NCBI RefSeq assembly: GCF_009649845.1 | Contig: NZ_WJIE01000009.1 | Coordinates: forward strand, 96,685 to 160,684 | Direction: 5' to 3' | DNA from: Polyangium spumosum | GTDB lineage: Bacteria; Myxococcota_A; Polyangia; Polyangiales; Polyangiaceae | Length of the DNA stretch: 64,000 nucleotides | The notes under the pieces: generated by a model | Told to the model about the DNA's origin: nothing | Seen by the model: the letters and a program-made list of their open reading frames with translations, nothing else | Databases searched by the model: none | Position numbers and translations under genes: made by a program | In this document: positions 14,365 through 35,234 of the stretch, piece after piece | Layout of the letters: every line of letters begins with the position of its first letter | How positions within the stretch are numbered: the stretch's first letter is position 1

Positions 14365-14443
14365 TGGCGAGGAAGGAAGCGCAAGTATTTCGAGGATGTC
14401 AAGCGATTGCGAGCCCTGCGCACGTCCTCCCTCAGCCCGTCCT

Positions 14444-14715
14444 CATCCTCCCGCAGGCTGATTTCATCCTCCCGCAGGCTGAACGCATCCTCCCGCCAGG
14501 CCGATTTCATCCTCCCGCCGGGCTGACCTCATCCTCTCGCAGGCTGATTTCCTCCTCCCGCCAGGCAGACCTCATCCTCCCGCAGGCAGACCTCATCCTC
14601 CCGCCAGACCGACCTCATCCTCCCGCCAGACCGACCTCATCCTCCCGCAGGCAGACCTCATCCTCCCGCAGGCTGATTTCATCCTCCCGCATGCAGACCT
14701 CATCCTCCCTCCCTG
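14444..14715. repeat. minisatellite: about 13 tandem copies of a degenerate 21-22 bp unit (CATCCTCCCGCAGGCTGATTT / ...CCGCCAGACCGACCT)
   Basis: Read directly in the sequence. Lies in the intergenic region between the divergent AraC gene and the small gene at 14790. No unique spacers, so it is not CRISPR. Confidence 0.85.
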
Positions 14716-14789: not shown

Positions 14790-15287
14790 ATGACGACGAC
14801 GTACGCCCCTTATACAGGCCCCATGGACGCGACCCTCACCGACGTGCAGGACGACCTCGTCGACCTCGCCGCTGGAGCCTCCAAAGGCTTCCGCGGCGTC
14901 CAGCCCGGGATCGAAGGTGTCTGCGACGAGCTCGCGGGCTCCGTCGCCGTGTTCGGCGAGGCCGCCGGCATCTCCCCCAAGCTCTACGAGCGGTTCGTCG
15001 GCGAGACCAAGAGCATCGACGCCCTCGTGAAGAAGGAGGCCATCCTCGAGAAGATGCTCGAGGCCACCCGCGAGTCCCGCCGCCTCAAGACCCACCAGCG
15101 CGAGAACACCATCGCCCAGATGGTCGACATCACGAAATCCACCGCCCAGCGCACCGGCGACAAGGCCCTCCTCGCCCCCTTCGAGAAGACCATCCGCTAC
15201 AACGCCCAGACCGCGCTCCGGGCCGCCAAGACCCGCCGCAAGAACAAGGCCGCGAAATCGGAGGCCCCGTCAAGCTCCGAAGCGTGA
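14790..15287 (+). CDS. hypothetical helical protein (165 aa), immediately upstream and co-oriented with tssJ
   Basis: GGAGGTG RBS 6-12 nt upstream of ATG at 14790. Balanced amino-acid composition. The upstream part of tracked ORF 14331..15287 runs through the minisatellite and is rejected. Confidence 0.6.
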   Translation: MTTTYAPYTGPMDATLTDVQDDLVDLAAGASKGFRGVQPGIEGVCDELAGSVAVFGEAAGISPKLYERFVGETKSIDALVKKEAILEKMLEATRESRRLKTHQRENTIAQMVDITKSTAQRTGDKALLAPFEKTIRYNAQTALRAAKTRRKNKAAKSEAPSSSEA

Positions 15288-15456
15288 GCCCGCCCGGGCC
15301 CCGCCTCGCCCCGCTCGCCTCCTCCCGCCCCCCCGTCCCGCCCCCTCGGCCACCCCACAGCCGTCCTCTCTAACCCATCGTTTCCATTCTCCTCCGCGCC
15401 CCGTCTTCGCGACTTTGTAGACCCGTCCCGCACGATCGCTCTACCCTTCACGTCGC

Positions 15457-15957
15457 ATGGCCTCCTCCAGGCACCGTCCGGGCGGGACGACGAGCAGGGC
15501 GCGATTCATCGTGGCCCTCGCCTCGTGCCTTGCCCTCTCGAGCCTCGGCTGCTCCGCGGGCCCCCCGCCGACGCGTTTTCTCGTCGAGGTCGCCATCACC
15601 GCCAGGGCGAACCGCAATTCGCCCGTCCCCATGACCCTCGTCGCGGTCCAGGAGCCGAAGCTCTTCGACCAGATCGTCAAGCTCACCGCCAAGCAGTGGT
15701 ACGACCAGCGCGAGCAGATGCGCCGGGATTATCCGAGCGGCACCGCCTTCACCGAGTGGGATTGGGAGTTCGTCCCCGGCCAGTCGCCCCCGCCCGTGGT
15801 CGTCGAGGTCGACGGCAAGGCCGTCGGCGCCGTCATCTTTGCCAATTATCGCTCGCCCGGCGATCATCGCTTCCGGATCGGCCCGCAGCGCCGCATGCGC
15901 GTCGACCTCGGTGACGATGATCTCGTCGTGAGCCCCCTCGATGCTCCGGAGGAATGA
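15457..15957 (+). CDS. tssJ: type VI secretion lipoprotein TssJ
   Basis: 166 aa. Lipobox (LSSLGCS). Size and internal pattern (ARANRNSPVPMTLVAVQEPKLFDQ...RFRIGPQRRMRVDL) match TssJ/SciN. First gene of the T6SS operon; 4-nt overlap with tssK. Confidence 0.8.
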   Translation: MASSRHRPGGTTSRARFIVALASCLALSSLGCSAGPPPTRFLVEVAITARANRNSPVPMTLVAVQEPKLFDQIVKLTAKQWYDQREQMRRDYPSGTAFTEWDWEFVPGQSPPPVVVEVDGKAVGAVIFANYRSPGDHRFRIGPQRRMRVDLGDDDLVVSPLDAPEE

Positions 15958-17288
15958 GCATGCGCGCCGACGACATTCCGCTCGCGATTCAATGGCACGA
16001 CGGGATGCTCCTGTCGCCGCAGCACTTCCAGGAGGCCGATCGCAGGGCCGAGCGCCTCCTCGCTTATCACCTCGGCCAGGCGAGCCCCTACCACCACGGC
16101 ATCGTCACCCTCAAGCTCGCCGAGGGCACCCTCGCGAGTGGCCTGCTCCGCGTCCAGCACGTCGAGGCCATCATGCCCGACGGCACCCTCGTCCATCACG
16201 TCGCCGGCAAGCACGACCTCTCCGTCGACCTGCGCCCCCACGCCGCGCTCGTCCATCACGCGCCCGCCACCGTCTACCTCGCCGTCCCGCGCGCGCAGAT
16301 GGCCGTCTCCGCCTCCGCCGCCGACCTCGCGCGCCACCGCTCCGCCGAGGGCGCCGCCGTCGTCGACGAGCACACCGGCGAGGACCCGCTCGAGATCCCC
16401 CGCATCGCCCCGAGCTGCCGCCTGCTCGTCGCCGCCGAGCCGCCCCCGCGCCTCGTCTGCTTGCCCATCGCCCAGGTCCGCCTCGAAGGCGAGGCCTTCG
16501 TCGCCACCGACTACATCCCGCCCACGCTCGGCGTCGCCCAGGGCTCGCCGCTCGACGAGATGTGCCAGCGCCTCACCGGCCGCCTGCGCGAGAAGGCCAT
16601 GCGCCTCGCCGAGAAGTCGAACTTCCTCTCCCGCACCACCGATCGCGAGCTCATCGGCGAGATCCGGCGCCAGATCCAGTGCCTCGTCGCCGCGCTCCCG
16701 CCCTTCGAGGCCGTCCTCTATTCCGAGCGCCCGCACCCCTTCAGCCTCTTCGTCGCGCTCACCGGCCTCGTCGGGCAGATCTCCTCCCTCGCGCGTACAC
16801 CCGTCCCGCCGCTCCTGCCCCGCTACCGGCACGACGACCTGCGCGCGACCTTCGAGACCGCCCGCGATCACATCTTCCGCATGGTCGACGAGGGCATCAT
16901 CGAGTCCTTCACCGCGTACCCCTTCGACCTCAAGGAGGGGAAGTACAACGTCCTCTTCCAGCGCGAGTTCCGCACGCGCGCCCTCGTCGTCGCCGTCCGT
17001 GTCCAGCGCGGCGTGCGCGAGGATCAGCTCCTCAACTGGATGAACGGCGCGCTCATCGGCGCCCCGGCCCGCCTGCGTACCATGCAGGAGAGCCGCATCC
17101 TCGGCGCGGGTCGCAAGCGCGTCGAGCGCTGCGGCGACCTCGTCGCCACGCCCGGGACCTTGCTCTTCGAGCTCGAAGAGCAGAGCGTCTACCTCGACCC
17201 GGGCGAGCCGCTCACCTTGTGCAACACGGCCGATCCGACGGGGCAGAGCGGCCCCTCCGAGGCGGTCCTCTACGTGAAGAGCGGGTAA
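15954..17288 (+). CDS. tssK: type VI secretion baseplate protein TssK
   Basis: N-terminus IQWHDGMLLSPQHFQEADRRAERLL is the TssK signature; 444 aa. Confidence 0.9.
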   Translation: MSMRADDIPLAIQWHDGMLLSPQHFQEADRRAERLLAYHLGQASPYHHGIVTLKLAEGTLASGLLRVQHVEAIMPDGTLVHHVAGKHDLSVDLRPHAALVHHAPATVYLAVPRAQMAVSASAADLARHRSAEGAAVVDEHTGEDPLEIPRIAPSCRLLVAAEPPPRLVCLPIAQVRLEGEAFVATDYIPPTLGVAQGSPLDEMCQRLTGRLREKAMRLAEKSNFLSRTTDRELIGEIRRQIQCLVAALPPFEAVLYSERPHPFSLFVALTGLVGQISSLARTPVPPLLPRYRHDDLRATFETARDHIFRMVDEGIIESFTAYPFDLKEGKYNVLFQREFRTRALVVAVRVQRGVREDQLLNWMNGALIGAPARLRTMQESRILGAGRKRVERCGDLVATPGTLLFELEEQSVYLDPGEPLTLCNTADPTGQSGPSEAVLYVKSG

Positions 17289-17295
17289 CGGGCCG

Positions 17296-18048
17296 ATGGC
17301 TTCTCCGGGACGACCCGCGCTCAGCTCGAAGCACGCGACGCACCGCGACCAGCGCGTCCTCGTCGACGCGTTCTGCAACTTCCACGCGGACGTCGTCACG
17401 CAGAAGCGCCTCGTGGTCGCCTCGGGCGGCGCCCTCCCCCACGACGCCATCCAGCAGCGCCTGCTCGACGCCTTCGAGCAGCAGGCGAGCAAGATCCAGG
17501 GCTCGCTCCCCGAGCACGAGCGCCGCCTCTTCGAGGAGACCCGCTACGTCATGATCGCCATGGCCGACGAGGTCTTCCTCCACCTCGACTGGCCCGGCCG
17601 CGCGCCCTGGGCCGACAAACCCCTCGAGTCGGTCGTCTTCCAGACCCGCGACTCGGGCGACCGCTTCTTCAACCGCATCGACGACGCCCTCTACGGCCGC
17701 GCGCCTGCCTCCTCGCAGCTCCTCACCGTCTACCTCACGGCCCTCGCCCTCGGCTTCCGCGGCCGTTACGCGCCCCTCGGCACCGGCGAGCCCGAGACCT
17801 ACCGCGCCCGCATCGTCGACTTCCTCGCCCGCACCGATCCCGAGATCGTCCGCGGCGAAGACCTCTGCCCCCAGGCGCACGAGCACACCGCGACGGACGC
17901 GCCGCTGAAGCGCTTGCCCTCCCTCTCCCGAGGCCTCTTGCCGTTCCTCGTCGTCCTGCTCGGCTGGATCGTCATCGGCGAGATCCTCTGGCTCTATCGC
18001 ACGGCCGAGCTCGACAAGGTGCTCGACCGCATCGAGGGCGCCTCGTGA
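17296..18048 (+). CDS. tssL: type VI secretion membrane protein TssL (DotU/IcmH family); no peptidoglycan-binding extension
   Basis: DotU-like core (LLTVYLTALALGFRGRY) followed by a C-terminal TM helix; 250 aa. Confidence 0.85.
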   Translation: MASPGRPALSSKHATHRDQRVLVDAFCNFHADVVTQKRLVVASGGALPHDAIQQRLLDAFEQQASKIQGSLPEHERRLFEETRYVMIAMADEVFLHLDWPGRAPWADKPLESVVFQTRDSGDRFFNRIDDALYGRAPASSQLLTVYLTALALGFRGRYAPLGTGEPETYRARIVDFLARTDPEIVRGEDLCPQAHEHTATDAPLKRLPSLSRGLLPFLVVLLGWIVIGEILWLYRTAELDKVLDRIEGAS

Positions 18049-21000
18049 CCGTCGGCTTGCTCCTCAAGATCCTCGCGGGCCTCGCCGCGCTCGCCGTCGT
18101 CGGCGTGGGTGTCTACGCGCTCGTCCTCGCGCAGAAAAAGAAGGCGCAGAAGGCCGCCGAGCTCGCCAGGCGCGAGGGCAAACCCGACGCCGTCGCCGAG
18201 ATCCGCGCCTCCGTAGGCAAGGCCAAGGCCGCCCTCGTCAAGAAGGTGCCCGACAAGGCCGCGCGCGAGGAGATGCCGCGGTTCCTCGTCCTCGGCGAAC
18301 CTTCCTCCGGGAAGACCACGCTGCTCGGCGGCTCGGGCCTCAGCGTCGGGCTGCACGAGGGCGGCGATCCCGCGCCCGGCGACAGGTCCGCCGTCCACCT
18401 CTGGATGCTCGGCAAGGCGCTGCTCGTCGACGTCGCCGGTGGCCTGCTCTTCGGCGAGGGCGGCACCGCCGCGCCCGATGGGCCGTATCGCGCGCTGCTG
18501 CACGAGCTCAAGCGCCTCTACCCCGATCGCCCCGTCGACGGCATCCTCCTCACGGTCCCCTGCAACGAGGTCATGCCCCAGGCGCGCTCCACGCCCGCCG
18601 AGCGCAAGCGCAAGGCGACGGTCCTGCGCGCCGCGATCGCCCTCGCGCAGCAGACCCTCGGCATGAACGTCCCGGTCTACGTGGTCGTCACGCAGACCGA
18701 TCGCCTCTCCGGCTTCCGCAGCCTCGGCACGGAGGTCACGCAAAACGGCAAGGACGACATCCTCGGCTGGTCGAGCCCGCACCCGCCCTTCACCGAGGGC
18801 TCGGACGACTGGGCCTCCGAGGCGATCGGCTCCGTCCGCGACGCGCTCCTCCGCTACCAGGCGCGGCGCTTCGCCGGCGCCCCCGTCGTCCGCTCGCCCG
18901 ACGACTTCTTCCTCTTCCCGAGCGAGATCGAGTCCCTCGGCGACGGCCTGCGCACCTACGTCGATCCCGTCTTCCTCGAGGGCGCCGGCCAGGAGACGCT
19001 CACGCTCCGCGGCATCTACTTCACGGGCCTCGCCGATCCGCCCGCCGGCCCTCTGCCGCTGCCGGCTCCCGGCGCCTCGCCCGCCGCGCTCGCGCCCCCC
19101 GCCAAACCTGCCGCCGCGGCCGCGCCGCCGGGCAAGGTCCTCTTCACGAAGGACCTGTTCGAGCACAAGGTCTTCGCCGAGCGCAACCTCGGCAAACCCG
19201 CCGCCGCCGCGCTCCGCCGTCGCCAGCGCGTGAACCTCGGGCTCCAGCTCGTCGCGGGTTGCCTCGCGGGCATGTTCCTCGCGGCCCTCTGGATCGACGC
19301 CTCGCGCCTCGAGCGCCGCACCACGGCGGTCATGCCCTTCCTGCGCGACGTCCAGAGCAGCGTCCTCTCGGCGAAGAGCGAGGCCCCCGGCACCGAGACG
19401 AGCTTCGAGGCGAAGAAGCTGCGCGCCAAGGCCCTCATCGAGAAGCTCGAGACGATCGAGGAGTCGGGCCGCCTGCGCTCCCCGCTGAACCCTGCCTCCT
19501 GGTGGAGCCGCCTCGACGGCCGCGTCGACAGCGCCTTCGTCATCGCCCTCGAGCAGGTCCTCGTCGACACCTTCCGCGCCGGCCTCGACGAGGAGGCCAA
19601 CCACCTCCTGCGCCCGCTGCCGCCGCAAGCTCCGCCCGACACGTTTTTCCCGCTCAGCGTCGAGAAGAGCCAGGAGTACATCCTGCTCGAGACGTGGCTG
19701 CGCGAGCTCGGCGCGTTCGAGGCCCACGTCGCGCGCCACGACGCCCTGCTCGGCGAGCTGCCGAAGGACGCCACGCCCGACGCGCGTATGCAGGGCGTCG
19801 CCGACCTCTCGGACTACCTGCTCGGCTACAAGACCTCACCCACGATCGCGGTCGAGTACTACCGCAACGCCCTCGCCCGCGGCGCGCGCCGCCAGCCCTT
19901 CGACCTCGCCCCGCGGCGTGATCCGGCCCGCGAGAAGGCGCAGGCCCTCTTCAAGGGCTTGCAGGATCGTGTGCTCGAGGCCTACAGCGACGCCGTCGTC
20001 CGCGCCGACGTCGAGCAGCTCGTCCAGAGCCTGAAGGACCTCGAGACGAAGGGCGCCGAGTACACCGCGCAGGACCTCTGGACCTTGCGTGACGCGATCG
20101 CCCGCGTCGAGGCGCACCTCGGCGCGCCCACGCTCGCCTGGGTGTCGAGCGAGTCGCTGCCGCCGAACGAAGGCATCGCGGGCCTGCTCAAGGCCGTCAA
20201 GACCTCGCGCCTGCTCGGCCCCGACGTCGAGGCGGCCCTGCGCGGCGGCGTCGACGCGCGCCTGCTCGATCTCAAGACGTACGTCGCGAGCGCGGGCGCG
20301 CCCCTCTCCGGGCCCATCCTGGAGCGCAAGGGCGGCGTCCTGCTCATGCGCCTCTCGCCCTTCATCCTCGGGCTCAAGGCGCCCATCGACGCGCTCCGCC
20401 AGCAGACGTTCATGACGGCCGAGGAGGAGCAGACCCTCACGGCCGAGCTCGATCGCGCCCGCGTCGACTGGGACGCCGAGGTCCTCAAGGAGGCCTCGCG
20501 TTTGCCCAAGGACTACGAGACCTTCCTCCAGGGCAAACTCCTCACGACCATCGACCCGCGCGTCCGCAACACGATCTCCGATCTCACGGTCCGTCAGGTC
20601 AAGGCGAGCACCCTCGGCGCCGTCGCCCGCGCCGCGCGGCCGGCCACGCCCCTGCCTGGGAACAGCAATCGCCAGTTCGAGACCGTACGCGCCGACGCCG
20701 CGAACCTCGGCCAGGCGATGGCCCCCATCCGCGAGATGATCGGCGCGTTCGTGCGCCTGCGCATGGACGACGCCCGCGACAGGTTGCGCGAGCTCTTGCG
20801 CGGCCAGGGCTCCGAGGTCCTCGGCCGCGGCGCGGAGGTCCTGCGCGCCGAGAACCTCTACGGCCTCAAGAAGGGCGGCTTCACCTGGTGGGACGGCCGG
20901 TCCACGCCTGCCTTCGAGGCCTTCAGCGTGCCCGACGCGGGGCGGTTGTCCGAGTACGCCGCGGCCCAGCGCACGCGCGCGGCCACGCTGCACAAGGAGC

Positions 21001-22112
21001 TCGCCGAGCCCGTGCTCGCCGCGATGGAGAGCCCCGAGGTCGCGGGCGACGGCGCCGGGGATCCAAACGTCGCGCTTTGGCAGAACGTCGCCTGGCCGCT
21101 CAAGGACCACGAGAACAAGAAGGCGGGCAACGGGGTCTCGAACCTCGAGACCTTCATGCTCTCGGACCTCCCGCTCATCACGGGGAAGAACTGCATCGCC
21201 GAGCTCGACAAACGCGCGAACGTCGACGGCTCGGGCGGGTTCTTCGCGGGCAAACAGAAGTACATCGTCGAGGAGCTACGCGAGCGCTGCCGCGCCCTCG
21301 CCGGCGACGAGATGCGTGATCGGTACGCCGCGCTCCGCCGCACCTTCAACCGCGAGCTCTCGGGCAAGTTCCCCTTCGTCAAGATCGAGCCTGGCATCCG
21401 CGTCGAGGACGCGCGGCCCGAGGTCGTCCGCCGCTTCCTCCAGGACGCCGGCGATTTCCGCGCCGATTTTGGCTACGTCCTCGGCAAGGAGACGAAGGCC
21501 TCGGCGGGCGAGGTCGGCCGCTTCCTCGACAAGATCGAGGCCGTCCGCGCCTTCATGATGCCCATGTGGGCGCAGGTCGAGTCGGCCGAGGACGGCATCT
21601 ACGACGTCAAGGTCGAGTTCCGCGTCAACCCCGGCCTCGAGGTCGGCGGCAACCGCATCGCCGAGTGGGCCATGCGGCTCGCGGACGAGCGCCTCTTCCG
21701 TGACGGCCCCAAGGTCGAGGCGAGCTGGCGCGTGAACGATCCGGTCCGCGTCGATCTGCGCTGGGCGAAGTCGAGCCTCGACGTGCCTCTGTCGACGCAG
21801 GGCCCGAACGTCTTCGTGAACGACAGGACCGTCACCTTCGAGGAGCGCGGCCCCTGGGCGCTGCTCCGCATGATCGCGTTCCACCAGACCTCCGCGCGGG
21901 ACGCGTCGCAGAAGTCCGAGGGCGGCTCGCACGTGCTCGGCTTCGTCATCCAGTCCTCGCCGGATCCCACGGGTGGCTTCATCGAGCGCGTCGGGACCGA
22001 GGCCAACACCGTACGTGTCTTCATCCGCATCGGGATCACCGGCGTCGAGAAGGACCGGTTCCTCCGCTACCCCGAGTTCCCCGCGGTCGCCCCGACCCTC
22101 TACGAGAGATAA
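18045..22112 (+). CDS. tssM: type VI secretion membrane protein TssM (IcmF family)
   Basis: 1355 aa. N-terminal TM helices. Walker A motif (LGEPSSGKTTLL). IcmF-like length. 4-nt overlap with tssL. Confidence 0.9.
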   Translation: MTVGLLLKILAGLAALAVVGVGVYALVLAQKKKAQKAAELARREGKPDAVAEIRASVGKAKAALVKKVPDKAAREEMPRFLVLGEPSSGKTTLLGGSGLSVGLHEGGDPAPGDRSAVHLWMLGKALLVDVAGGLLFGEGGTAAPDGPYRALLHELKRLYPDRPVDGILLTVPCNEVMPQARSTPAERKRKATVLRAAIALAQQTLGMNVPVYVVVTQTDRLSGFRSLGTEVTQNGKDDILGWSSPHPPFTEGSDDWASEAIGSVRDALLRYQARRFAGAPVVRSPDDFFLFPSEIESLGDGLRTYVDPVFLEGAGQETLTLRGIYFTGLADPPAGPLPLPAPGASPAALAPPAKPAAAAAPPGKVLFTKDLFEHKVFAERNLGKPAAAALRRRQRVNLGLQLVAGCLAGMFLAALWIDASRLERRTTAVMPFLRDVQSSVLSAKSEAPGTETSFEAKKLRAKALIEKLETIEESGRLRSPLNPASWWSRLDGRVDSAFVIALEQVLVDTFRAGLDEEANHLLRPLPPQAPPDTFFPLSVEKSQEYILLETWLRELGAFEAHVARHDALLGELPKDATPDARMQGVADLSDYLLGYKTSPTIAVEYYRNALARGARRQPFDLAPRRDPAREKAQALFKGLQDRVLEAYSDAVVRADVEQLVQSLKDLETKGAEYTAQDLWTLRDAIARVEAHLGAPTLAWVSSESLPPNEGIAGLLKAVKTSRLLGPDVEAALRGGVDARLLDLKTYVASAGAPLSGPILERKGGVLLMRLSPFILGLKAPIDALRQQTFMTAEEEQTLTAELDRARVDWDAEVLKEASRLPKDYETFLQGKLLTTIDPRVRNTISDLTVRQVKASTLGAVARAARPATPLPGNSNRQFETVRADAANLGQAMAPIREMIGAFVRLRMDDARDRLRELLRGQGSEVLGRGAEVLRAENLYGLKKGGFTWWDGRSTPAFEAFSVPDAGRLSEYAAAQRTRAATLHKELAEPVLAAMESPEVAGDGAGDPNVALWQNVAWPLKDHENKKAGNGVSNLETFMLSDLPLITGKNCIAELDKRANVDGSGGFFAGKQKYIVEELRERCRALAGDEMRDRYAALRRTFNRELSGKFPFVKIEPGIRVEDARPEVVRRFLQDAGDFRADFGYVLGKETKASAGEVGRFLDKIEAVRAFMMPMWAQVESAEDGIYDVKVEFRVNPGLEVGGNRIAEWAMRLADERLFRDGPKVEASWRVNDPVRVDLRWAKSSLDVPLSTQGPNVFVNDRTVTFEERGPWALLRMIAFHQTSARDASQKSEGGSHVLGFVIQSSPDPTGGFIERVGTEANTVRVFIRIGITGVEKDRFLRYPEFPAVAPTLYER

Positions 22113-22117
22113 CCGCG

Positions 22118-23197
22118 ATGTCGTCGACGAACGCCCTGCACATCGATCTGGAGACGTTGCTCCAGCCCATCTCCGAGGAGGCGCCGTGTGGCGCGTCTCT
22201 CCGGTACGAAGGCACGTACGACCGGGTCCGCGAGGCGCGCCGCGAGGACGATCCGTCGCTGCCCATGGGCGACTGGGAGACCAAGCTCAAGGTCGCCGAC
22301 TTCGCGCTCGTGGACAAACTTTGCCAGGAGGCGCTGCGCAAGAAATCGAAGGACCTCCAGATCGCGGCGTGGCTCGTGGAGGCTTGGCTGCGGCGCTATC
22401 GCGTGAAGGGCCTCGGCCAGGGTTTGTCGCTCGTCGCCGCGCTCTGCGAGCGGTACTGGGACGGCCTCTTCCCCGCGCTCGGCGACGACGAGGACGCCTC
22501 CGCGCGCGCGGCGCTTTACGAGTGGATGGACGACGTCCTCTCCGATCGCCTGCGCCAGACGCCGTTCGCGGACGGGGACGCGTCGTTCTCGCTGCTCGAT
22601 TGGGAGCTCGGCGCGAAGGCCGGGCCTGTGGACGGGGAGGGGGAGGCGGCGCGGCCGACGCGGGAGTCGCTGCTCGCCAAGATCTCGCTCGGCGGCGCGC
22701 GCTTCACGGACGTCGCGCTCGACGCGGGCACGGCGATCATCGCGGCCGAGGCGGCCGAGGCGGCGATCGCCGCGCAGATCCCGCGCCCGCCCACGCTGCG
22801 CCGCGTGCGTGAGGTCCTCGCGCAGATCGAGATGCTCGCGCGGGACGCGGCGCGTATCAACGGCGAGAGCGCTCCCTCCGCGGCGAGCGCGCCCGGGGAG
22901 AGCCCGCCGCTGCTCGGATCGGCCGCGGCGGCGGCGGCGGCGTTCACGGCCTCGGGCGGCGCGGGGGCGTCGGGCTCCTTCGCCATCTCGAGCCGCGCCG
23001 ACGCGTATTACCGCCTCGCCGAGGCGGCCGAGTACCTCATGCGGACCGAGCCGCACAGCCCCGTCCCGTACCTGGTCAAACGTGCGGTGCAGTGGGGCAA
23101 CATGTCGCTCGCGCAGCTCCTCTACGAGTTCGTCGGAAACCCTGATGATCTCGTGGCGATACAGCGCTTGCTCGGGATGCGCGGGAGGGAGGAATAA
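22118..23197 (+). CDS. tssA: type VI secretion protein TssA (ImpA N-terminal domain)
   Basis: ImpA_N-like N-terminus (LLQPISEEAPCGASLRYEGTYDRVREARRED). Confidence 0.85.
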   Translation: MSSTNALHIDLETLLQPISEEAPCGASLRYEGTYDRVREARREDDPSLPMGDWETKLKVADFALVDKLCQEALRKKSKDLQIAAWLVEAWLRRYRVKGLGQGLSLVAALCERYWDGLFPALGDDEDASARAALYEWMDDVLSDRLRQTPFADGDASFSLLDWELGAKAGPVDGEGEAARPTRESLLAKISLGGARFTDVALDAGTAIIAAEAAEAAIAAQIPRPPTLRRVREVLAQIEMLARDAARINGESAPSAASAPGESPPLLGSAAAAAAAFTASGGAGASGSFAISSRADAYYRLAEAAEYLMRTEPHSPVPYLVKRAVQWGNMSLAQLLYEFVGNPDDLVAIQRLLGMRGREE

Positions 23198-23358
23198 CGG
23201 GGGATCCGCGAGCGCGCCCCTACGAGGGTGTTGTGTTTTCGAGCCCGAGCACGGTAAGAAGGAAAATGCGCCAGAAGTAGACCCCGTGCGCGGGCGGTGT
23301 TTCGGGAAGTTCGCAAAGCCGCGGCTGCCGCCGCGAGAGCCGAGGAAGGGAGCCATCG

Positions 23359-23862
23359 ATGGCAGAGAGCAAGCAGCACTGGCTGGACCGGAACCGTCCG
23401 CCGCGTGTGCAGATCACGTATGACGTCGAGACGGGCAACGCAATCGAGAAGAAAGAGATCCCGTTCGTCGTCGGCGTGCTGAGCGATCTGGGGCAGAACC
23501 CGGCGAATCCGCTGCCCAAGCTGAAGGATCGCAAGTTCGTCGAGGTCGACCGCGACAATTTCAACGACGTCCTGGCCTCCACGAAGCCGGAGATCACGGT
23601 GAAGGTCGACGACGTGATCAAGGGGACGGGCAAGATCGCGATTCCCCTGACGTTCACGCACATGGACGATTTCCGGCCCGAGCGCCTCGTCGAGCGGATC
23701 CCGGAGCTCCGCAAGCTGCTCCGCGCGCGCGAGCGCCTGAACGACCTCCTCGCCAAGCTCGAAGGCAACGACGAGCTCTCGGCGGCGCTGCGTGAGGTCA
23801 TGGAGAGCACCGAGGCTCTCGAGAAGATCAAGGCGGAAGTTTCGAAGGACGACCAGAGCTGA
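23359..23862 (+). CDS. tssB: type VI secretion sheath small subunit TssB (VipA)
   Basis: 167 aa; PPRVQITYDVETGNAIEKKEIPFVVGVLSDL matches the TssB consensus. Confidence 0.9.
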   Translation: MAESKQHWLDRNRPPRVQITYDVETGNAIEKKEIPFVVGVLSDLGQNPANPLPKLKDRKFVEVDRDNFNDVLASTKPEITVKVDDVIKGTGKIAIPLTFTHMDDFRPERLVERIPELRKLLRARERLNDLLAKLEGNDELSAALREVMESTEALEKIKAEVSKDDQS

Positions 23863-23883
23863 GTCCGCGCGGAGGATACGAAC

Positions 23884-25386
23884 ATGCCGGAGACGAGCAG
23901 CGCGAAACAACACATCGACACGAGCGCGGATGGCGCGGCGATCATCGATCAGATCCTCGCCGAGGGCGCGATGGTCCGGGGGGACAACCCCGCCCAGAAG
24001 CAACACGCCCGCGACATCGTCGGGGAGTTCTGCCAGCAGATCCTCGATGAGCGGGATCCTGCGGACAAGCAGCGGGCCATCGACCTCGGCGCGGTCGCGG
24101 CCATTCAGGATCGCATCAACGAGATCGACGAGATCATCGGCAAGCAGCTCGACGTGATCCTGCACGCGGCCGAGTTCCAGTCGCTCGAGGCGCGCTGGCG
24201 GGGGCTGCACTACCTCGTCATGAACACGGAGACGAGCACGCGGCTCAAGATTCGCGTGATGAACGTCCGCAAGGACGAGCTCCGCAAGGATTTCGAGTCG
24301 GCGCCCGACTTCGATCGCAGCGCGCTCTTCAAGAAGGTCTACGAGGAGGAGTACGGCACCTTCGGCGGCGCGCCGTATGGCCTGCTCCTCGGCGACTACG
24401 AGTTCGACGGATCGAGCCCGGACGTCGGCCTCTTGACCGAGCTTTCGAAGGTCGCGGCGGCGGCGCACGCGCCCTTCATCTCGGCGGCGAGCCCGTTCCT
24501 CTTCGACATGGAGAACTTCGGGCAGATCGGCGTGCCCGGCGATCTCGCCAAGCTCTTCGAGAGCACGCAGCTCATCAAGTGGCGCGAGTTCCGCGAGAGC
24601 GAGGACAGCCGTTACGTCGGCCTCGTGCTCCCGCATGTGCTCATGCGCCTCCCGTACGGCCCGAAGGGCGTGCCCGTGGACGGCTTCATGTACGAGGAGA
24701 ACGTCGGCGCCGAGGACAAGAACTTCCTCTGGGGCAACGCGGCGTACGCGCTCGGCCAGCGGATCACGAACGCGTTCGCGCATTATGGCTGGTGCGCGGC
24801 GATCCGCGGCGTCGAGGGCGGCGGCCTCGTCGAGAACCTCCCGGTGCACGTCTTCAAGACGAGCGACGGCGACCTCGCGGTGAAGACGCCGACCGAGGTG
24901 GCGATCACCGATCGCCGCGAGAACGAGCTCTCCGAGCTCGGGTTCATCGGGCTCTGCTATCGCAAGAACAGCGGCCAGGCTGCGTTCTTCGGCGGCGCGA
25001 CCGCGAACAAGCCCAAGGTGTACAACCTGCCCTCGGCGACGGCGAACGCGCGTCTGTCGGCGCAGCTCCCGTACATCATGGCGACGAGCCGGTTCGCCCA
25101 TTACATCAAGGTCATGATGCGCGACAAGATCGGCAGCTTCATGACCAAGGACAACGTGTCGTCGTACCTCAACAACTGGATCGCGGACTACGTGCTCCTC
25201 AACGACGACGCGGGTCAGGACACGAAGGCGCGGCTGCCTCTTCGTGAGGCGCGGATCGACGTCACCGACGTTCCGGGCAAGCCGGGCGCGTACCGCGCCG
25301 TGGTCTTCCTGAAGCCGCACTTCCAGCTCAACGAGCTCACGGTCTCGATGCGCCTCGTGGCGGATCTTCCGCCTCCTGCAGCGTGA
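23884..25386 (+). CDS. tssC: type VI secretion sheath large subunit TssC (VipB)
   Basis: 500 aa; conserved TssC stretches (FQSLEARWRGLHYLV, GAPYGLLLGDYEFD, LPHVLMRLPYG). Confidence 0.95.
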   Translation: MPETSSAKQHIDTSADGAAIIDQILAEGAMVRGDNPAQKQHARDIVGEFCQQILDERDPADKQRAIDLGAVAAIQDRINEIDEIIGKQLDVILHAAEFQSLEARWRGLHYLVMNTETSTRLKIRVMNVRKDELRKDFESAPDFDRSALFKKVYEEEYGTFGGAPYGLLLGDYEFDGSSPDVGLLTELSKVAAAAHAPFISAASPFLFDMENFGQIGVPGDLAKLFESTQLIKWREFRESEDSRYVGLVLPHVLMRLPYGPKGVPVDGFMYEENVGAEDKNFLWGNAAYALGQRITNAFAHYGWCAAIRGVEGGGLVENLPVHVFKTSDGDLAVKTPTEVAITDRRENELSELGFIGLCYRKNSGQAAFFGGATANKPKVYNLPSATANARLSAQLPYIMATSRFAHYIKVMMRDKIGSFMTKDNVSSYLNNWIADYVLLNDDAGQDTKARLPLREARIDVTDVPGKPGAYRAVVFLKPHFQLNELTVSMRLVADLPPPAA

Positions 25387-25492
25387 CGGGCTTCGCAGAT
25401 CGGTGTAGGGTGTAAATCATGGAGATCGCCGTCCCACGCGCGGATACTCGCGCGCGGGCGGCGATCATCGACGGGGACGCGGAGGATTTACG

Positions 25493-25987
25493 ATGGAAAC
25501 CAGCTTTTTGGAGATCGAGGGCGTCAAGGGCGAGAGCACGGCGGCGCAGGGCAAGGACAAGATCGAGGTCATGTCCTTCAGCCACGGCGTGGCGATGCCG
25601 CTGACGAGCGGCGCCTCGGCGAACGCGCGCGCGCACGGCCGCTGCGTGCATCAGGACTTCACGTTCAGCAAGTACCTCGACATCACCTCGCCGACGCTGA
25701 ACCTCAAGTGCAGCGGCGGCGACAACATCAAGAAGGCCGAGCTCACCGTCTTCCAGGCCGACAAGAACGACGGCGACATGGTCCTTTATTACAAGATCAC
25801 GTTCGAGGACGTGATCCTGACGAACATCTCGGTGAGCGGCGGCTCGGGTGGCCGTCCCATCGAGACGGTCACGTTCAACTACCGCAAGATCAAGTGGTCG
25901 TACGCCCAGCAGGGCCAGCCTTCGCCGGCGGGCAAGAAGGGCACGGCCGAGGCGGGCTGGACGCTCGAGGAGAACAAGAAGCTCTAA
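25493..25987 (+). CDS. hcp: Hcp (TssD) tube protein
   Basis: 164 aa; FLEIEGVKGEST...VMSFSHGV pattern typical of Hcp. Confidence 0.9.
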   Translation: METSFLEIEGVKGESTAAQGKDKIEVMSFSHGVAMPLTSGASANARAHGRCVHQDFTFSKYLDITSPTLNLKCSGGDNIKKAELTVFQADKNDGDMVLYYKITFEDVILTNISVSGGSGGRPIETVTFNYRKIKWSYAQQGQPSPAGKKGTAEAGWTLEENKKL

Positions 25988-26023
25988 CCCGAGGACGTAT
26001 TCTCGTCCCAGGGGAGCGACAGA

Positions 26024-26500
26024 ATGGCGAAGGCGTGGGGATCCACGAGCGCGGGCAGGGTTCCCCTGTTCGATCGGCTGATCGACGAGAACCCTGCTCA
26101 AAAACAGGAAGTGGTCCCCTATTGCACCCTCGACCGAGACGGGCTGCGCGCCTCCGTGGCCCGCGAGCTCGGTCGAATCCTCGGCACCCGCAGCCCCATC
26201 TCCGGCGACGAGGCCCTCTCCCGACCGCGCACGACCATCGATTACGGGTTGCCCGACCTCGAGCTCGGCGGCCGTGCGCTCGTGCCGGAGGAGCTGCGCC
26301 GCCTCGTGCGCCTCGTGCAGAAGACGATCGAGGCGTACGAGCCGAGGCTCCAGAACGTACGCGTGGAGATCAAGCGACGCGAGGACGCGCCGCCGCACGC
26401 GCGGCTCGTCGTCGCGCTCACGGCGACGCTCGTCACGGACGAGGTGCGTGAGCCCCTCTCGTTCGAGGCGCCGCTCGAAGCGAGCTCGGGGGCCGCATGA
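26024..26500 (+). CDS. tssE: type VI secretion baseplate protein TssE (gp25-like)
   Basis: 158 aa; gp25/GPW-like pattern (LFDRLIDENP...TIDYGLPDL). 4-nt overlap with tssF. Confidence 0.85.
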   Translation: MAKAWGSTSAGRVPLFDRLIDENPAQKQEVVPYCTLDRDGLRASVARELGRILGTRSPISGDEALSRPRTTIDYGLPDLELGGRALVPEELRRLVRLVQKTIEAYEPRLQNVRVEIKRREDAPPHARLVVALTATLVTDEVREPLSFEAPLEASSGAA

Positions 26501-28305
26501 GCCGGGGTGATCCCGATCGGGAGATGCTCGAGCTCTACGCGCGCGAGCTCGTGTATCTGCGCGAGCGCGGCGCCGAGTTCGCCAAGGACTATCCGAAGAT
26601 CGCGGCGCGCCTCGGCACGTCGAGCCAGGCCTCGGCCGATCCACACGTCGAGCGCCTCGTCGAGGCCTTCGCGTTCCTCTCGGCGCGCCTCACGCGCGAC
26701 ATGGAGGCCGAGCTGCCGATTTACACGACGTCGCTGCTCGGCGTCCTCTATCCGCAGCTCGTTTGCCCCGTCCCTGCGATGGCGATCGCCGCCTTCGAGG
26801 TCGACCCGAAGGAGCAGAAGCTCGGCTCCGGCTACACGGTCGACAAGCACACGCCGCTCTTCGCGGCCTCGCAGAGCGGGCCCGTTTGTCATTTTCGCAC
26901 CGCGTATCCGGTCACGCTCTGGCCGATCGAGATCACGCACGCGGGCATGGTCCCGCCCGAGAACCTCGACCTGCCCGGCTGGCTCGTCGCGAACGCCGCG
27001 GCCGTGCTCGAGATCGAGCTCTCGACCGGCGGGGTCCCGCTCGACAAACTCGGCATGCGCTCGCTGCGCTTCCACGTCGCGGGCGGGGGCATGGGCGCGG
27101 CGCGGCTCTACGACCTCGTCGCCGCGCACGCCGTCGGCGTCCTCGTGGTCGGGGACAACCCTTCGCAGGACTGGGCCCACGGCAAGATCCGCCCCGTCGG
27201 CTTCGAGGCGAGCGAGGACGTCCTGCCGTATCCGCCCCACGCGCACCGCGGCCATCGCCTCGTGCAGGAGTATTTCGCGTTCCCGGAGAAGTTTCATTTC
27301 TTCGACATCGAGCTCCCGAAGCTCCCGCCCCGGAAGAACGCGAAGATCCTCGTCCTCTTCGACCAGAAGCCGCCGGCCGGCGCCGCGGTCCGCAAGACGA
27401 CGCTCTCGCTCGGCTGCACCCCGATCATCAACCTCTTCCCGCGCAGCGCCGAGCCCATCCGCGTCGATCACACCCGGCCCGAGTATCGCCTCGTCGCCGA
27501 CGCGCGCCGCGAGCGGACCACCGAGGTCCACTCGATCACGCGTGTGGCCGCCACCGCGCCCGGCGAGCCCAAGCAGATCGATTACGCGTCCTTTTTCTCC
27601 TTCGTGCACCACCAGAAGGGCGAGCGGCCGCGCGCCTTCTGGCACGCGCGCCGTGTCGCCACGGGCCGCAAGGACCTGCCGGGCACCGACCTCTGGCTCA
27701 CCTTCGTCGACACCGACTTCAAGCTCGCGCGTCCGCCCTCGGAGACCGTCTACGCGGGCGTCCTCTGCACGAACCGCGACCTCGCGAACGAGATCGCCAA
27801 GGACACCCAGCTCTCCCCCGAGCGCCCCATCCCGGCCCGGAAAATCGTTTGTCTCACGAAACCGACGCCCCAGCGCGCGGCGCCCATGGGCGGCGAGGCC
27901 CTCTGGCGGCTCGTCTCGAACCTCTCGCAGAACCACCTCTCGATCACCGACGGCAAGGCCGGCGTCTCCGCGCTCCGCGAGATCCTGCGCGCGTACGTCT
28001 TCGGCGATTCGCCCGACGCCGAGCGCCAGATCGACGCGCTTCTCGACATCTCGAGCCGCGTCGTCACGCGCCGCCTCGGCAGCGACGCGTGGCGCGGCTA
28101 CTGTCGTGGCCTCGAGATCACGCTCACGCTCGCGGACGAGCAGTTCGCCGGATCGAGCCCGGTCCTTTTGGCCTCGGTGCTGAGCCGCTTCTTCGCCTTG
28201 CAGGCGCACATCAATGCGTTCACCGAGCTCGTCCTGAAGCGCGCCTCGCGCGCGGAGGTCTGGAAGCGATGGCCGCCCACGGCTGGCGAAAGAGCCCTTC
28301 TGTAG
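26497..28305 (+). CDS. tssF: type VI secretion baseplate protein TssF
   Basis: 602 aa; N-terminus LELYARELVYLRERGAEFAKDYPKIAARLG is the TssF signature. Confidence 0.9.
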   Translation: MSRGDPDREMLELYARELVYLRERGAEFAKDYPKIAARLGTSSQASADPHVERLVEAFAFLSARLTRDMEAELPIYTTSLLGVLYPQLVCPVPAMAIAAFEVDPKEQKLGSGYTVDKHTPLFAASQSGPVCHFRTAYPVTLWPIEITHAGMVPPENLDLPGWLVANAAAVLEIELSTGGVPLDKLGMRSLRFHVAGGGMGAARLYDLVAAHAVGVLVVGDNPSQDWAHGKIRPVGFEASEDVLPYPPHAHRGHRLVQEYFAFPEKFHFFDIELPKLPPRKNAKILVLFDQKPPAGAAVRKTTLSLGCTPIINLFPRSAEPIRVDHTRPEYRLVADARRERTTEVHSITRVAATAPGEPKQIDYASFFSFVHHQKGERPRAFWHARRVATGRKDLPGTDLWLTFVDTDFKLARPPSETVYAGVLCTNRDLANEIAKDTQLSPERPIPARKIVCLTKPTPQRAAPMGGEALWRLVSNLSQNHLSITDGKAGVSALREILRAYVFGDSPDAERQIDALLDISSRVVTRRLGSDAWRGYCRGLEITLTLADEQFAGSSPVLLASVLSRFFALQAHINAFTELVLKRASRAEVWKRWPPTAGERALL

Positions 28306-29324
28306 AGGCCTGGCTCTTCGACGAGGGGCACGCCTTCGATTTTTATCAGGCCGTCTCCCTCCTCGAGCGCTGGCGCGAGGGCGACGCCGTCCCCGTCGGC
28401 GAGGGCTCCGATCCTTCACGCGAGGCCGTGCGGTTCTCGTCGAGCATCGCGCTCTCCTTCCCCGAGACCGACGTCGCGAAGATTCGCCCGCCGCACCGCG
28501 AGGGCCAGCCGGCGAAGATGCTCGTCAACTTCCTCGGCCTCGGCGGCGCCCTCGGCCCTCTGCCGCCGCCCATCGTCGAGTCGATCTTCATGCGCGCCGT
28601 CCGCGGCGACACCGCGGCGCGTGATTTCCTCGACATCTTCAATCACCGCCTCGTCTCCTTCGCTTATCGGATCCGCAAGGGCCACCGCGTCGGCCTCGGC
28701 GCCTCCTCGCCCGAGAAAGACGCCGCGGCGCGGCACCTCTTTTCGCTGCTCGGGCTCGGCTTTCGCGCGCTCGAAGGCCGCCTCGCGGTCCAGGATCGCG
28801 CCCTGCTCGAGCACGCGGCGAACCTCTCGAGCGAGAGGCGCTCGCTCGAGGGCCTCGTGGCCATCCTCCGCCGCCATTTTGGCGTCTCGATCGAGCCCAT
28901 CCCGCTCACCGGGGCGTTTCATCCCATCGAGGACGGTGATCGTACTGCGATCGGCCGCTCCGGCCAGAACCGCGCCCTCGGCCGCGACGCCTGCCTCGGG
29001 GGGCGCTTCTGGGATCAGGAGTCGACCTTCGACCTGCGCATCGGGCCGATGAAGCTCGACGAATTCCTTCGATTCCTCCCGGGCGGCGACGCGCTCGCGC
29101 CGCTCTGCTCCCTCGTGCGGTTTTATGCTGGCGCCCGATTCCACTTCGGCCTCGTCCTCGTGCTCGCCGAGGGCGAGGCGCCGCGGGCGGCGCTTGGTCG
29201 CCCTGGGCGCGCGCTCCTCGGCCAGATCGCGTGGCTCGGCGACGTGGGCAAGGTGGGCAGGAGGGACCGCGAGGTGCGTTTGTCCCGTGCGGCCATTCGG
29301 AAGGGGCTCGGGGAGGCTGGCTGA
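28269..29324 (+). CDS. tssG: type VI secretion baseplate protein TssG
   Basis: ATG at 28269, in frame with the 3' part of tracked ORF 26763..29324 (MAAHGWRKSPSVEAWLFDEGHAFDFYQAVSLLER...). TssG-like; overlaps tssF by 37 nt. The 5' 1.5 kb of that tracked ORF is an off-frame artefact inside tssF. Confidence 0.85.
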   Translation: MAAHGWRKSPSVEAWLFDEGHAFDFYQAVSLLERWREGDAVPVGEGSDPSREAVRFSSSIALSFPETDVAKIRPPHREGQPAKMLVNFLGLGGALGPLPPPIVESIFMRAVRGDTAARDFLDIFNHRLVSFAYRIRKGHRVGLGASSPEKDAAARHLFSLLGLGFRALEGRLAVQDRALLEHAANLSSERRSLEGLVAILRRHFGVSIEPIPLTGAFHPIEDGDRTAIGRSGQNRALGRDACLGGRFWDQESTFDLRIGPMKLDEFLRFLPGGDALAPLCSLVRFYAGARFHFGLVLVLAEGEAPRAALGRPGRALLGQIAWLGDVGKVGRRDREVRLSRAAIRKGLGEAG

Positions 29325-29377: not shown

Positions 29378-32300
29378 ATGACGACCGAAGACCAGAGCCA
29401 GGGCGCCACGGAGAGCATTCCGAGCAAGCTCGGGAAGTTCGCGCAGGAGCAGATCGACAAGGCCGAGGTCACGGTCACGAAGGGCGTCTCCACCGTCCGC
29501 GACTCCACGAACGGGATCATCGGCAAGGCCGAAGAGCAGATCCTCAAGCTCAACAAGGCCCTCTACGAGACCAAAAACGGCATCTCCTCCGGCATCGACA
29601 CGGCGATCAAGGAGACCGAAGGGCAGCTCAAGGGCATCACGCCCGAGCTCAAGAAGATGGGCGAGGACGCCATCGCGTCCGCGAAGTCGAAGCTCGACGG
29701 GCTCGTCGGCGAGGTCGAGGGCAAACTCGAATCGCAGAAGGACTCGCTCGTCACGACGGCGAAGGATCAGATCCAGAGCGCGGCCGACGCGGCGAAGGGC
29801 AAGATCGACGAGATCGGAGAGCTCGGCGAGGAGCAGGCGACGAAGGTCCTCGACGCGGTGAAGGCGCAGGCCGACACGGTCGAGCAGAAGCTCGGGGACA
29901 TCGCGGGCGAGATCGACGGCAAGATCGAGGCGATCGGCGACGACGTCCGGAGCAAGTTCGAGGCGGCGATCGCGAAGGTTCCCGATCACGACGGCGCCAA
30001 GGCCGAGATGTCGGCGAACATCGACGCCGTCGTGGGCGAGCTACGCGAGGCCACGAAGGGCTCGATCGATCAGGCGCGCGAGACGCTGAAGAGCCTCGTC
30101 CAGCAGACCGACGACACGATCAAGCAGACGATCGGCGACGTGCGGCGCGCGATCGGCGAGGTCCCGACCCGCATCAACCAGTGCGCGCAGGACATCCTCG
30201 CGAAGGTCGACGACGCCATCCAGAAGACGATCGACGAGATCGCGAACCTCGCGCGTGGTCTCGTCGCGCGCACGGCGGAGCTGCTCAACGAGGCGCTGCT
30301 CACGATCACGAGCACGATCGACAAACTGCTCGCCGACGGCTTCGCGCTCGTGCGGGGGATCAAGGCCGACCTCGATCGGCTGCTCGACCAACTGCTCGAG
30401 CAGATCCGCGACCTGACGCTCGGCACGCTCGAGGACGTGCGCAAGGCGGCGAACGAGCTTCTCGGCACGTTCGAGGCCGAATGCAAGAAGATCCTCCAGA
30501 CGATGGAGGACTCGGTCATCGTCTCGGTCGAGGAGCTCGGCGGCAAGATGAACGCCTCGATCAAGGCGCTCCAGGCCGACTTGAACCTCGAGGCGGACAA
30601 GATCGTCCGGGACCTCGTGGCGGAGGGCGCGAAGGGGCACGACGACGCGCTCGCGGACTTCATCAGCGCCGGTTATGAAGAGGACACCTCGGTCATCCCC
30701 AAGATCCGGGCCAAGGGCGAGGCTGCGATCAAGCAGATCGAGGCCAAGACCAAGGCGCAAGGGGAGAAGCTGATCAAGGACTTCGAGCTGCAAGCGACGC
30801 TCTTGAAGCCGAAGATCCAGGCGCAGGGCATCAAGGTCATCGCGCAGATCGCCGCGCTCGGACCGAAGCTCGCGATGCAGGCCATGCAGATCGCGACGAG
30901 CATCGCGTCGTCGATCAAGGACAAGGGCGAGGCGGTCAAGAAGACGTTCGAGGAGCTGCAATCGACGCTCGTCGACGCGATCACGAAGAAGATCCCCGAT
31001 TACCTCGAGAGCTGCAAGAAGCAGATCAAGGCCGCGGCGGACGCGCTCGTCGAGGCGGGCAAGACGTTCTACGAGAAGACGCTCGCCGACATCATGGGGG
31101 CGATCAAGGCGGCGGAGCAGCGGTTCAAGCAGCTCGCCTCCGAGATGAAGGACCTCATCGAGACGCAGGTGCTCGAGCTCGTGGCCTCCATTCGCCGGAC
31201 GGTGGAGACCTCGATCCAGCGCTTCAAGGACCTCGGCGCGGCGTTCGAGGACAAGACGAACGCGCTCGTGAACGACATCCCGGCGCGGATCCTCAAGCTG
31301 GAGCAGGTCGCGCGGACGGCGGTCGAGAGTCAGATCGCGCTCGCGCAGGGGCTCGCGAATGCGACGAAGGAGGACATCCTCCTCAAGGCGCGGACGGCGC
31401 TCGCGGAGATCAAGAAGGCGGCGTACGGGGTCACGGCGGGCATTTCGGGTGATCTGGGCGCATTGAAGGGGACGCTCGCCGCGATCGTGCCGGCGGGCGG
31501 GGGGCTCGACGCGGCGGGGGCGATCAACCTCGTGGTCTCGGGCGGGCTCGAGCAGATGGTCACGTCGGCGGCGAACGCGGCGTCCGCGGCGGTGACGGCG
31601 GGCGTGAACGCGGCCGAGGCCGTGAACAACGCGGCGGAGCAGGCGGCGGCCGCGATGGGGGCGGCGGGGTTCGAGGGCGCCTCGAAGGCATTGACGGACG
31701 TGCTGAACCAGCAAATGGGGGAGGTGCGGACGGAGGGCGAGAAGGCGAAAAACGTCATCGCCGCGGCGAAGGAGAAGACGATGGCGGTCGCCAAGGAGGC
31801 GAACGACGCGTGCTCCGAGGCGGCGGCGGCGGCGCAGGCCGAGGCGGCGAAGGTCGTGGAGGCCGCGCAATCGACGGGCGACGCGATCAAGGCCTCGGCG
31901 GACAACCTGACGAAGAGCCTCGAGAAGGCGAAGGAGATCGTCAAGGACGCCGGCAAGACCGCGATGCAATCGATGAAGGAGGCCCAGGACGCGCGCAAGG
32001 GCGGCGACGGCGCGCAGGCCGGCGCGGGGGCACAAGCCGGGGCGGCGGCAGGCGCGGACGCGGGTGGGGCGGACGCGGCGGCGGACGCGGGTGGCGCGGA
32101 GGCGGCGGCGGACGCGGGCGGGGCGGAGGCGGCGGCGGATGCGGGTGGCGCGGAAGCTCCGGCGGCGGAGGCGGCGGCTCCCGAGGCAGCGGCTCCCGAG
32201 GCCAAGGCAGAGGTTCCGGGCGCCAAGGCAGAGGTTCCGGGCGCCAAGGCAGAGGTTCCGGGCGCCTCGAAACCGGAAGCGGGCGCCGATGTAGCGGCGC

Positions 32301-34463: not shown

Positions 34464-34465
34464 CG

Positions 34466-35221: not shown

Positions 35222-35234
35222 GAATGGCCTCGCC

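Follow-up and report, generated by a model that had tools for sequence, protein, structure and literature searches.

A ClpV-less type VI secretion locus in Polyangium spumosum: gene content, relatives and the likely fate of its contracted sheath

Type VI secretion systems (T6SSs) of the canonical subtype i (T6SS-i) whose clusters carry no clpV are known in Campylobacter, Helicobacter and others (PMC3428339, PMC8285248). As in the locus described here, the clusters of Campylobacter jejuni and Helicobacter hepaticus have the full T6SS-i core and no clpV, and raise the same question of how the sheath is disassembled (PMC3428339, PMC8285248). A mechanistic precedent comes from the T6SS-ii of Francisella, in which ClpB, a housekeeping Hsp100 protein, replaces ClpV (PMC5481754, PMC7182274). 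In Myxococcus xanthus, which shares its phylum with Polyangium, the 13 core genes and tagF lie in a single cluster (MXAN_4800-4813), with tssJ beside vgrG and tssB as MXAN_4807 (PMC5801462). Our literature search found no paper on the T6SS or the ClpV status of Polyangium or Sorangium. Here we analysed 64,000 nucleotides of Polyangium spumosum (contig NZ_WJIE01000009.1, positions 96,685 to 160,684 of the forward strand), referred to below as the window. Eleven colinear T6SS genes occupy positions 15457-29324 of its plus strand, clpV is missing from the window, and the locus is a further ClpV-less canonical T6SS-i, as in Campylobacter. The proteins of the window matched exactly the GenBank entries MRG95809 to MRG95824 of P. 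spumosum. Its G+C content is about 70%, and the genome of the type strain DSM 14734 (GCA_009649845.1) has 10.8 Mb and 69.5% G+C (PMC10196010, supplementary data).

Ten core genes, from tssK to tssG, were identified on the plus strand by Pfam and NCBIfam. The sheath is encoded by tssB (small subunit, 23359-23862; PF05591, 1.1e-53; PDB 9n4v_B, 6e-56) and tssC (large subunit, 23884-25386; PF05943 and PF18945; PDB 9n4v_A, 5e-210), and the tube by hcp (25493-25987; PF05638, 8.4e-38). The baseplate genes are tssK (15954-17288; PF05936, 1.8e-48; TIGR03353 above cutoff), the gp25-like tssE (26024-26500; PF04965, 1.1e-13), tssF (26497-28305; PF05947, 2.1e-196) and tssG (28269-29324; PF06996, 3.9e-87), accompanied by a short form of tssA (22118-23197; PF06812; TIGR03363 at 264.7 bits, above cutoff). 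The membrane complex includes TssL (DotU), an inner-membrane anchor with one C-terminal transmembrane segment (17296-18048; PF09850, 2.2e-29), and the IcmF-like TssM (18045-22112; PF14331, 1.9e-45), which has a Walker A motif (GEPSSGKT), transmembrane segments and, in the periplasm, a divergent part of about 940 residues. A VgrG spike with a PAAR-type tip completes the set. The junction check gave overlaps of 4 nt at tssJ/tssK (ATGA), tssL/tssM (GTGA) and tssE/tssF (ATGA) and of 37 nt at tssF/tssG, the last also kept in relatives, and the remaining core junctions are gaps of 5-161 nt. A preliminary description made from the window alone had reported these eleven genes in this order and these overlaps; apart from its label for the first gene (see below), gene identities, coordinates and overlaps agreed exactly with our results.

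Other T6SS subtypes can be told apart by their parts: T6SS-ii has a sheath of the IglA/IglB type, T6SS-iii has no membrane complex of the TssJLM type, and T6SS-iv has no membrane anchor and carries a tape-measure protein. None of them fitted the Polyangium locus. The sheath scored 701 bits with a T6SS-i sheath and 243 bits with IglB, both TssL and TssM are present, and the tape-measure matches found next to the operon were artefactual (see below).

The absence of clpV was examined in three ways. Pfam was run on every plausible gene of the window and on 150 extra open reading frames (ORFs) of at least 117 residues in all frames, about 190 ORFs in all, and no AAA, Clp_N, FHA, protein kinase, PP2C or TagF (DUF2094) domain was found among them; the sole additional families in the batch of 150 were DUF4280 and a rotamase. 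With the ClpV proteins of three related loci as tblastn queries (Pseudomonas L009, Nitrospina L006 and the divergent L012), zero matches were obtained in the window even at E<=10. Furthermore, the motif GxxGxGK[ST] did not occur in any of the six frames of the window. Thus clpV, fha, ppkA, pppA and tagF are firmly missing from these 64 kb, as the preliminary description had claimed; Pfam bears this out for all five genes, and tblastn and the motif scan do so again for clpV. The gap of 5 nt between tssM and tssA leaves no space for a tagF as found in M. xanthus. clpV was also not found in the flanks that were read around the loci of Polyangium sp. 15x6 (3.1 kb past tssG), P. mundeleinium and an uncultured Polyangiaceae bacterium (L003). 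The H1-T6SS of Pseudomonas aeruginosa carries a threonine-phosphorylation module of Fha, PpkA, PppA and TagF. By Pfam, none of the four was found in the Polyangium cluster, and a phosphorylation control of the H1-T6SS type is not encoded there.

Among sheaths of known structure, the nearest relative is PDB 9n4v (TssC 701 bits, TssB 192 bits), with which both sheath proteins of the window align almost end to end. We attribute this structure to a ClpV-positive system of the Azotobacter type because its chain N-terminus is identical, over the stretch displayed, to the Azotobacter vinelandii locus L041. The Pseudomonas/Azotobacter cluster shares the block tssB-C-hcp-E-F-G with Polyangium. However, it has clpV and vgrG after tssG, and tssJ-K-L-M-A are divergently transcribed. 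The H1-T6SS of P. aeruginosa is next-nearest (PDB 5n8n and 4uqz; TssC1 482 bits, HsiB1 121 bits). The sheaths of V. cholerae and Francisella are clearly further away than these two; that of Francisella reached 243 bits for IglB and 41 bits for IglA, and its gene set is non-canonical. We presume from this pattern that the locus belongs in the neighbourhood of group 3 (i3), a placement by similarity scores and not by a subtype phylogeny. The sheath of M. xanthus (PDB 5urw) is more distant as well: TssC scored 407 bits with it (701 with 9n4v) and TssB 68 bits (192 with 9n4v). Since these scores lie well below those of 9n4v, the Polyangium locus, which has neither the tagF nor the clpV of M. xanthus, cannot be described simply as that of M. 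xanthus without clpV. Campylobacter and Helicobacter differ from Polyangium in phylum and in gene order; moreover, the ClpV absence in Campylobacter was seen across sequenced operons, whereas that in Polyangium is seen at the level of the locus.

A scan of contigs based on TssC, with one genome per species, yielded 80 related loci, the flanks of which were read up to 10 kb on each side. The nearest by TssC identity were those of Polyangium sp. 15x6 (L002, 95%) and an uncultured Polyangium (L001, 86%), followed by L003 (66%), and further loci at 55-65% came from Pseudomonas, Nitrospina, Thermoanaerobaculia, Desulfobacterales, Acidobacteriota and others. Most of the loci from outside Pseudomonas have the colinear order J-K-L-M-A-B-C-hcp-E-F-G. 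In the clusters of Nitrospina, Thermoanaerobaculia, Desulfobacterales, Acidobacteriota and others (L004, L006, L025, L031 and further loci; TssC identity 56-65%), core order, orientation and the tssF/tssG overlap are the same as in Polyangium, and vgrG is often followed by genes for a MORN protein and a DUF4280 protein, the same genes as in Polyangium. They differ in that clpV directly follows tssG, where Polyangium instead has a gene for a helical-repeat protein and an inverted spike module. A total of 63 loci had tssG and sufficient downstream sequence to be scored. clpV was present in 57 of them, starting at most about 500 nt from where tssG ends in 54, and was missing from six: L002, L003, L023 (Vitiosangium), L046 (Thermoanaerobaculia), L048 (Azospirillum) and L056 (Magnetospirillum). 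These absences are not due to masking, since runs of N in the sequence were checked for and excluded as the cause. The statement in the preliminary description that such a locus is unusual for T6SS-i therefore holds among these relatives, but ClpV-less T6SS-i clusters have precedents in Campylobacter, Helicobacter and others.

The sequence clusters of the window proteins at 90% identity or more include entries from P. jinanense, P. sorediatum, P. fumosum, P. mundeleinium, three further isolates and one Polyangium metagenome-assembled genome. The layout in P. mundeleinium is that of P. spumosum: tssG is followed by a gene for a 1268-residue protein, one variable gene and then, on the opposite strand, the DUF4280, MORN and vgrG genes, and no AAA gene occurs from tssK to vgrG. 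The ClpV-less arrangement is common to P. spumosum, at least eight other Polyangium genomes and the more distant Polyangiaceae genome L003. In a neighbour-joining tree of concatenated TssB, TssC, TssF, TssG and TssK, calculated with no bootstrap, the window, L002 and L003 formed one clade, and the ClpV-less L046 and L048 were nested among ClpV-positive relatives. On this topology, clpV was lost from the cluster at least three independent times among the sampled relatives, and the simplest history, given the clade and the nesting of L046 and L048, would be a single deletion in an ancestor of these Polyangiaceae with independent losses elsewhere. The sister locus of the Polyangiaceae clade, L012, has in its clpV slot (15524-18019, plus strand) a gene for an 831-residue protein with two AAA domains; Clp_N was not detectable in it, and it shares about 41% identity with ClpV across the AAA core. 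This protein may mark an intermediate stage on the way to the divergence or loss of ClpV. The recurrent losses suggest that a cis-encoded ClpV is more dispensable than the view of 13 core genes implies.

One canonical core gene of 13 is missing from the locus, and it could be argued that the loss of clpV inactivated the cluster and that it is now decaying. We regard such a non-functional remnant as scarcely credible. The ratio of nonsynonymous to synonymous substitution rates (dN/dS) against L002 was 0.13-0.43 for every gene, with no frame disruptions or internal stops, and against L003 it was 0.14-0.37, with synonymous sites near saturation (dS about 2). An apparent stop codon in tssM of L002 turned out to be the natural terminator. 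All 11 genes and the spike module are intact at the DNA level in the window, L002 and L081, and nine Polyangium genomes encode intact homologues of the proteins. Furthermore, the ClpV-less state is older than the split between Polyangium and L003, at 66% TssC identity, and no gene has been lost since. As judged from these substitution patterns, the machine is maintained by purifying selection. A genus of large-genome soil predators that keeps a ClpV-less but otherwise complete T6SS under such selection offers a second, phylogenetically independent setting for the standing question of how ClpV-less canonical T6SSs, for example that of Campylobacter, recycle or dispose of their sheaths. Annotators should not score such loci as incomplete or degenerate.

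We consider it more probable than any other single account, and somewhat better than an even chance, that the locus encodes a T6SS-i machine which has lost clpV and whose sheath is disassembled by an Hsp100 unfoldase with its gene at another place in the genome, be it an orphan ClpV or ClpB. This reading is favoured because TssC retains its N-terminal helix and the sheath aligns with that of the ClpV-positive 9n4v. In V. cholerae and enteroaggregative Escherichia coli (EAEC), this helix is the docking site of ClpV (PMC5048182). It is kept in the window (residues ~15-30, AAIIDQILAEG) and in L003 (ASLIDEILDQG); in ClpV-positive relatives the corresponding helix reads [ST]LLDxII, which aligns with IIDQIL of the window. 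The IIDQIL motif was invariant in nine Polyangium TssC sequences, in which residues 3-13 were variable. The locus encodes a membrane complex (the lipoprotein of the first gene, TssL and TssM), a baseplate (TssE, TssF, TssG and TssK), TssA, a sheath of TssB and TssC, the Hcp tube, and a spike module of VgrG, the MORN protein and the PAAR-like protein. It thus has all the parts for assembling and firing a T6SS-i and lacks the unfoldase that normally dismantles contracted sheaths. In our reading, the locus belongs to a widespread synteny family with the order J-K-L-M-A-B-C-hcp-E-F-G-clpV-vgrG, and clpV was deleted in the Polyangiaceae lineage; afterwards, in Polyangium, the spike module was inverted, and a gene for a helical-repeat protein of 1237 residues now stands after tssG. 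The contracted sheath would then be dismantled by a Clp/Hsp100 unfoldase from elsewhere in the 10.8-Mb genome, for which a relocated or orphan ClpV, or a housekeeping ClpB as in Francisella, are the candidates, recruited via the conserved TssC helix.

Several observations weigh against disassembly by an unfoldase encoded in trans. No unfoldase gene was seen in the 64 kb of the window. A ClpV profile of 14 sequences, run against a collection of 5.8 billion proteins, returned at least 8000 candidates; no Polyangium name stood among the best 120, a result that is uninformative either way. The TssC helix is also retained in all ClpV-less relatives and may be conserved for a structural reason independent of any unfoldase. 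In addition, since each ClpV of EAEC works specifically with its cognate TssC (PMC5048182), one taken over from another T6SS subtype might fail. The preliminary description had stated that sheath recycling must use a ClpV encoded elsewhere or another ATPase. Such a route is the likeliest reading, but it is not a necessity: other readings are possible, and clpV mutants of V. cholerae still fire, though infrequently (PMC10433429).

The main alternative is a machine with no dedicated unfoldase, of a single-shot or slow-turnover kind, the contracted sheaths of which would be diluted out or fall to general proteolysis, on the pattern of phage tails and extracellular contractile injection systems. 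clpV was missing from the locus in every Polyangium genome examined, and its recurrent loss from clusters of this family suggests that the loss is tolerated. Myxobacteria are slow growers, which would cut the cost of not recycling. The firing of V. cholerae clpV mutants is not only infrequent but productive (PMC10433429), and is thus a precedent for such a machine. However, a TssC helix with nothing docking on it should show relaxed constraint, and in the H1-T6SS of P. aeruginosa, the best-studied sheath among the close PDB matches, Hcp secretion was abolished without ClpV1 (PMC10433429). We therefore hold this explanation to be rather unlikely.

The gene in the slot that clpV occupies in relatives has also to be considered. 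Its start lies 53 nt past the end of tssG, likewise on the plus strand (29378-33091), and it encodes the 1237-residue protein, in which about 874 residues of helical repeats are followed by an Ala/Pro-rich tail of tandem repeats. The N-terminal 874 residues are 88% identical, without gaps, to the P. mundeleinium homologue, and dN/dS against L002 was 0.24, so that its conservation between Polyangium species is on a par with that of the core T6SS proteins. Among the examined loci, it was confined to the three Polyangium loci that cover the position (P. spumosum, Polyangium sp. 15x6 and P. mundeleinium), in all of which it stands at the same place. A simple hydropathy scan predicted no transmembrane segment, no ATPase motif was found, and Pfam gave sub-threshold apolipoprotein-like matches alone. 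Five matches to 'tail length tape measure' families of PHROGs, down to 1.7e-13, were obtained. However, the reversed sequence matched the same families down to 9.5e-16, while full and heptad-block shuffles matched none; a decoy that scores equally or better indicates helical periodicity and composition, and the identity as a tape-measure protein was rejected. The conserved position and sequence could speak for a new T6SS component, one that might control sheath length or stability, make ClpV dispensable, or be a secreted effector. We find this decidedly improbable. The protein does not occur in the ClpV-less L003 or in any other locus, so that a system without ClpV can do without it; an ATPase motif is missing from it, and its tape-measure matches were reproduced by the reversed sequence. 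A weak sigma-70-like match lies between tssG and the gene, in a scan at chance level, so that co-transcription is open to doubt. Large coiled-coil proteins are, moreover, common in myxobacteria. The protein is not demonstrably a substitute for ClpV. The stricter combination, in which no ClpV exists anywhere in Polyangium genomes and the 1237-residue protein is either a new accessory factor that acts on the length, stability or turnover of the sheath or a secreted effector of very large size, has a slightly slimmer chance still; if true, it would represent a ClpV-independent variant of an otherwise canonical T6SS-i. Apart from the absence of clpV, with a genus-specific gene in the vacated slot, the locus is that of an ordinary T6SS.

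The preliminary description had also listed vgrG as lacking in cis and as absent from the whole window, and in doing so contradicted its own mention of a vgrG about 6 kb away. A complete vgrG is present at 35235-37235 on the minus strand, convergent to the core operon (PF05954, 4.6e-97; PF04717; PF22178), and its product is named VgrG of Polyangium spumosum in GenBank. It belongs to a spike module (34074-37235, minus strand, 4.7 kb downstream of the core operon) with a gene for a MORN-repeat protein (34466-35221, minus; PF07661), which is next to vgrG in L003, L006, L023, L049, L080 and others as well, and a gene for a PAAR-like DUF4280 spike-tip protein (34074-34544, minus; PF14107, 2.3e-35), which is 97% identical to that of P. 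mundeleinium. The true start of the DUF4280 gene is probably near 34455. Many clusters of this T6SS family have vgrG, MORN and DUF4280 genes as a conserved triad, which in Polyangium is oriented inversely to the core operon. In L003 the triad is contiguous with tssG (15515-18673, in the order tssG-vgrG-MORN-DUF4280, with a gap of 93 nt between tssG and vgrG), and in P. mundeleinium it has the same position as in P. spumosum; it is therefore part of the T6SS locus, and the claim that vgrG is lacking in cis is wrong. As for the MORN protein, an accessory or adaptor role at the spike is possible.

The strand of vgrG also carries, upstream of it, a gene for a protein of 1715 residues (38993-44140, minus), the N-terminus of which has a Pesticin (phage-lysozyme-like toxin) domain. 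Two small ORFs (38206-38988 and 37741-38157) with no family match come after it. This is a candidate T6SS effector region, and P. mundeleinium does not conserve the neighbourhood.

The first gene of the operon (15457-15957, plus) encodes a lipoprotein with the lipobox LSSLGC in the TssJ position, and homologues occupy the same position in 33 related loci, including those of Pseudomonas. No TssJ model in Pfam, NCBIfam or the PDB sequences matched it, even with a profile of 21 sequences, and a single-sequence AlphaFold2 model was unusable (pLDDT 37.6). Its designation as tssJ in the preliminary description is therefore plausible but unproven: the conserved lipoprotein at the TssJ position speaks for it, and the missing model match does not. 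TssM could be aligned along its full length with the TssM of relatives; however, TIGR03348 covered its N-terminal part only, below cutoff, and no Pfam domain matched the periplasmic part. A lipoprotein family that no TssJ model matches, together with this periplasmic part, points to a possible structural divergence of the membrane complex in this T6SS family.

The transcription unit probably extends past 15457-29324, since a conserved ORF lies upstream and the conserved 1237-residue protein is encoded 53 nt after tssG. The upstream ORF (14790-15287, plus) lies 5' of the lipoprotein gene and encodes 165 residues, with 86% identity to L002 by tblastn and a dN/dS of 0.43; it had no family match in Pfam or NCBIfam and is possibly the first gene of the T6SS unit. 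Promoter and terminator scans of the locus stayed at chance level. Between this ORF and a divergent gene for an AraC-family regulator (13285-14364, minus), Tandem Repeats Finder located an array with a period of 21/43 nt and about 13 copies of the 21-nt unit (14425-14709). Polyangium sp. 15x6 has an array of the same period and diverged sequence at the same place (592-829 of L002). The array in the window is possibly regulatory, as an array of binding sites.

At 44059-46536 (minus), 15 kb from the core operon, a PKMT-like methyltransferase with Methyltransf, MethyTransf_Reg and PKMT_2nd winged-helix domains is encoded. Homologues with 33-35% identity occur in or beside the T6SS clusters of four unrelated taxa (L046 at 15359-16984, L031, L059 and L073), and in the ClpV-less L046 the homologue directly follows tssG. 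The enzyme may be one that recurs in association with T6SSs. The locus is flanked by genes for three giant repeat proteins of a kind typical of myxobacteria: two that are TPR-rich, with 1624 and 1833 residues (871-5745, minus, and 5719-11220, plus), and one of 2000 residues with 15 Cu-binding motifs of the MopE type (46698-52700, minus).

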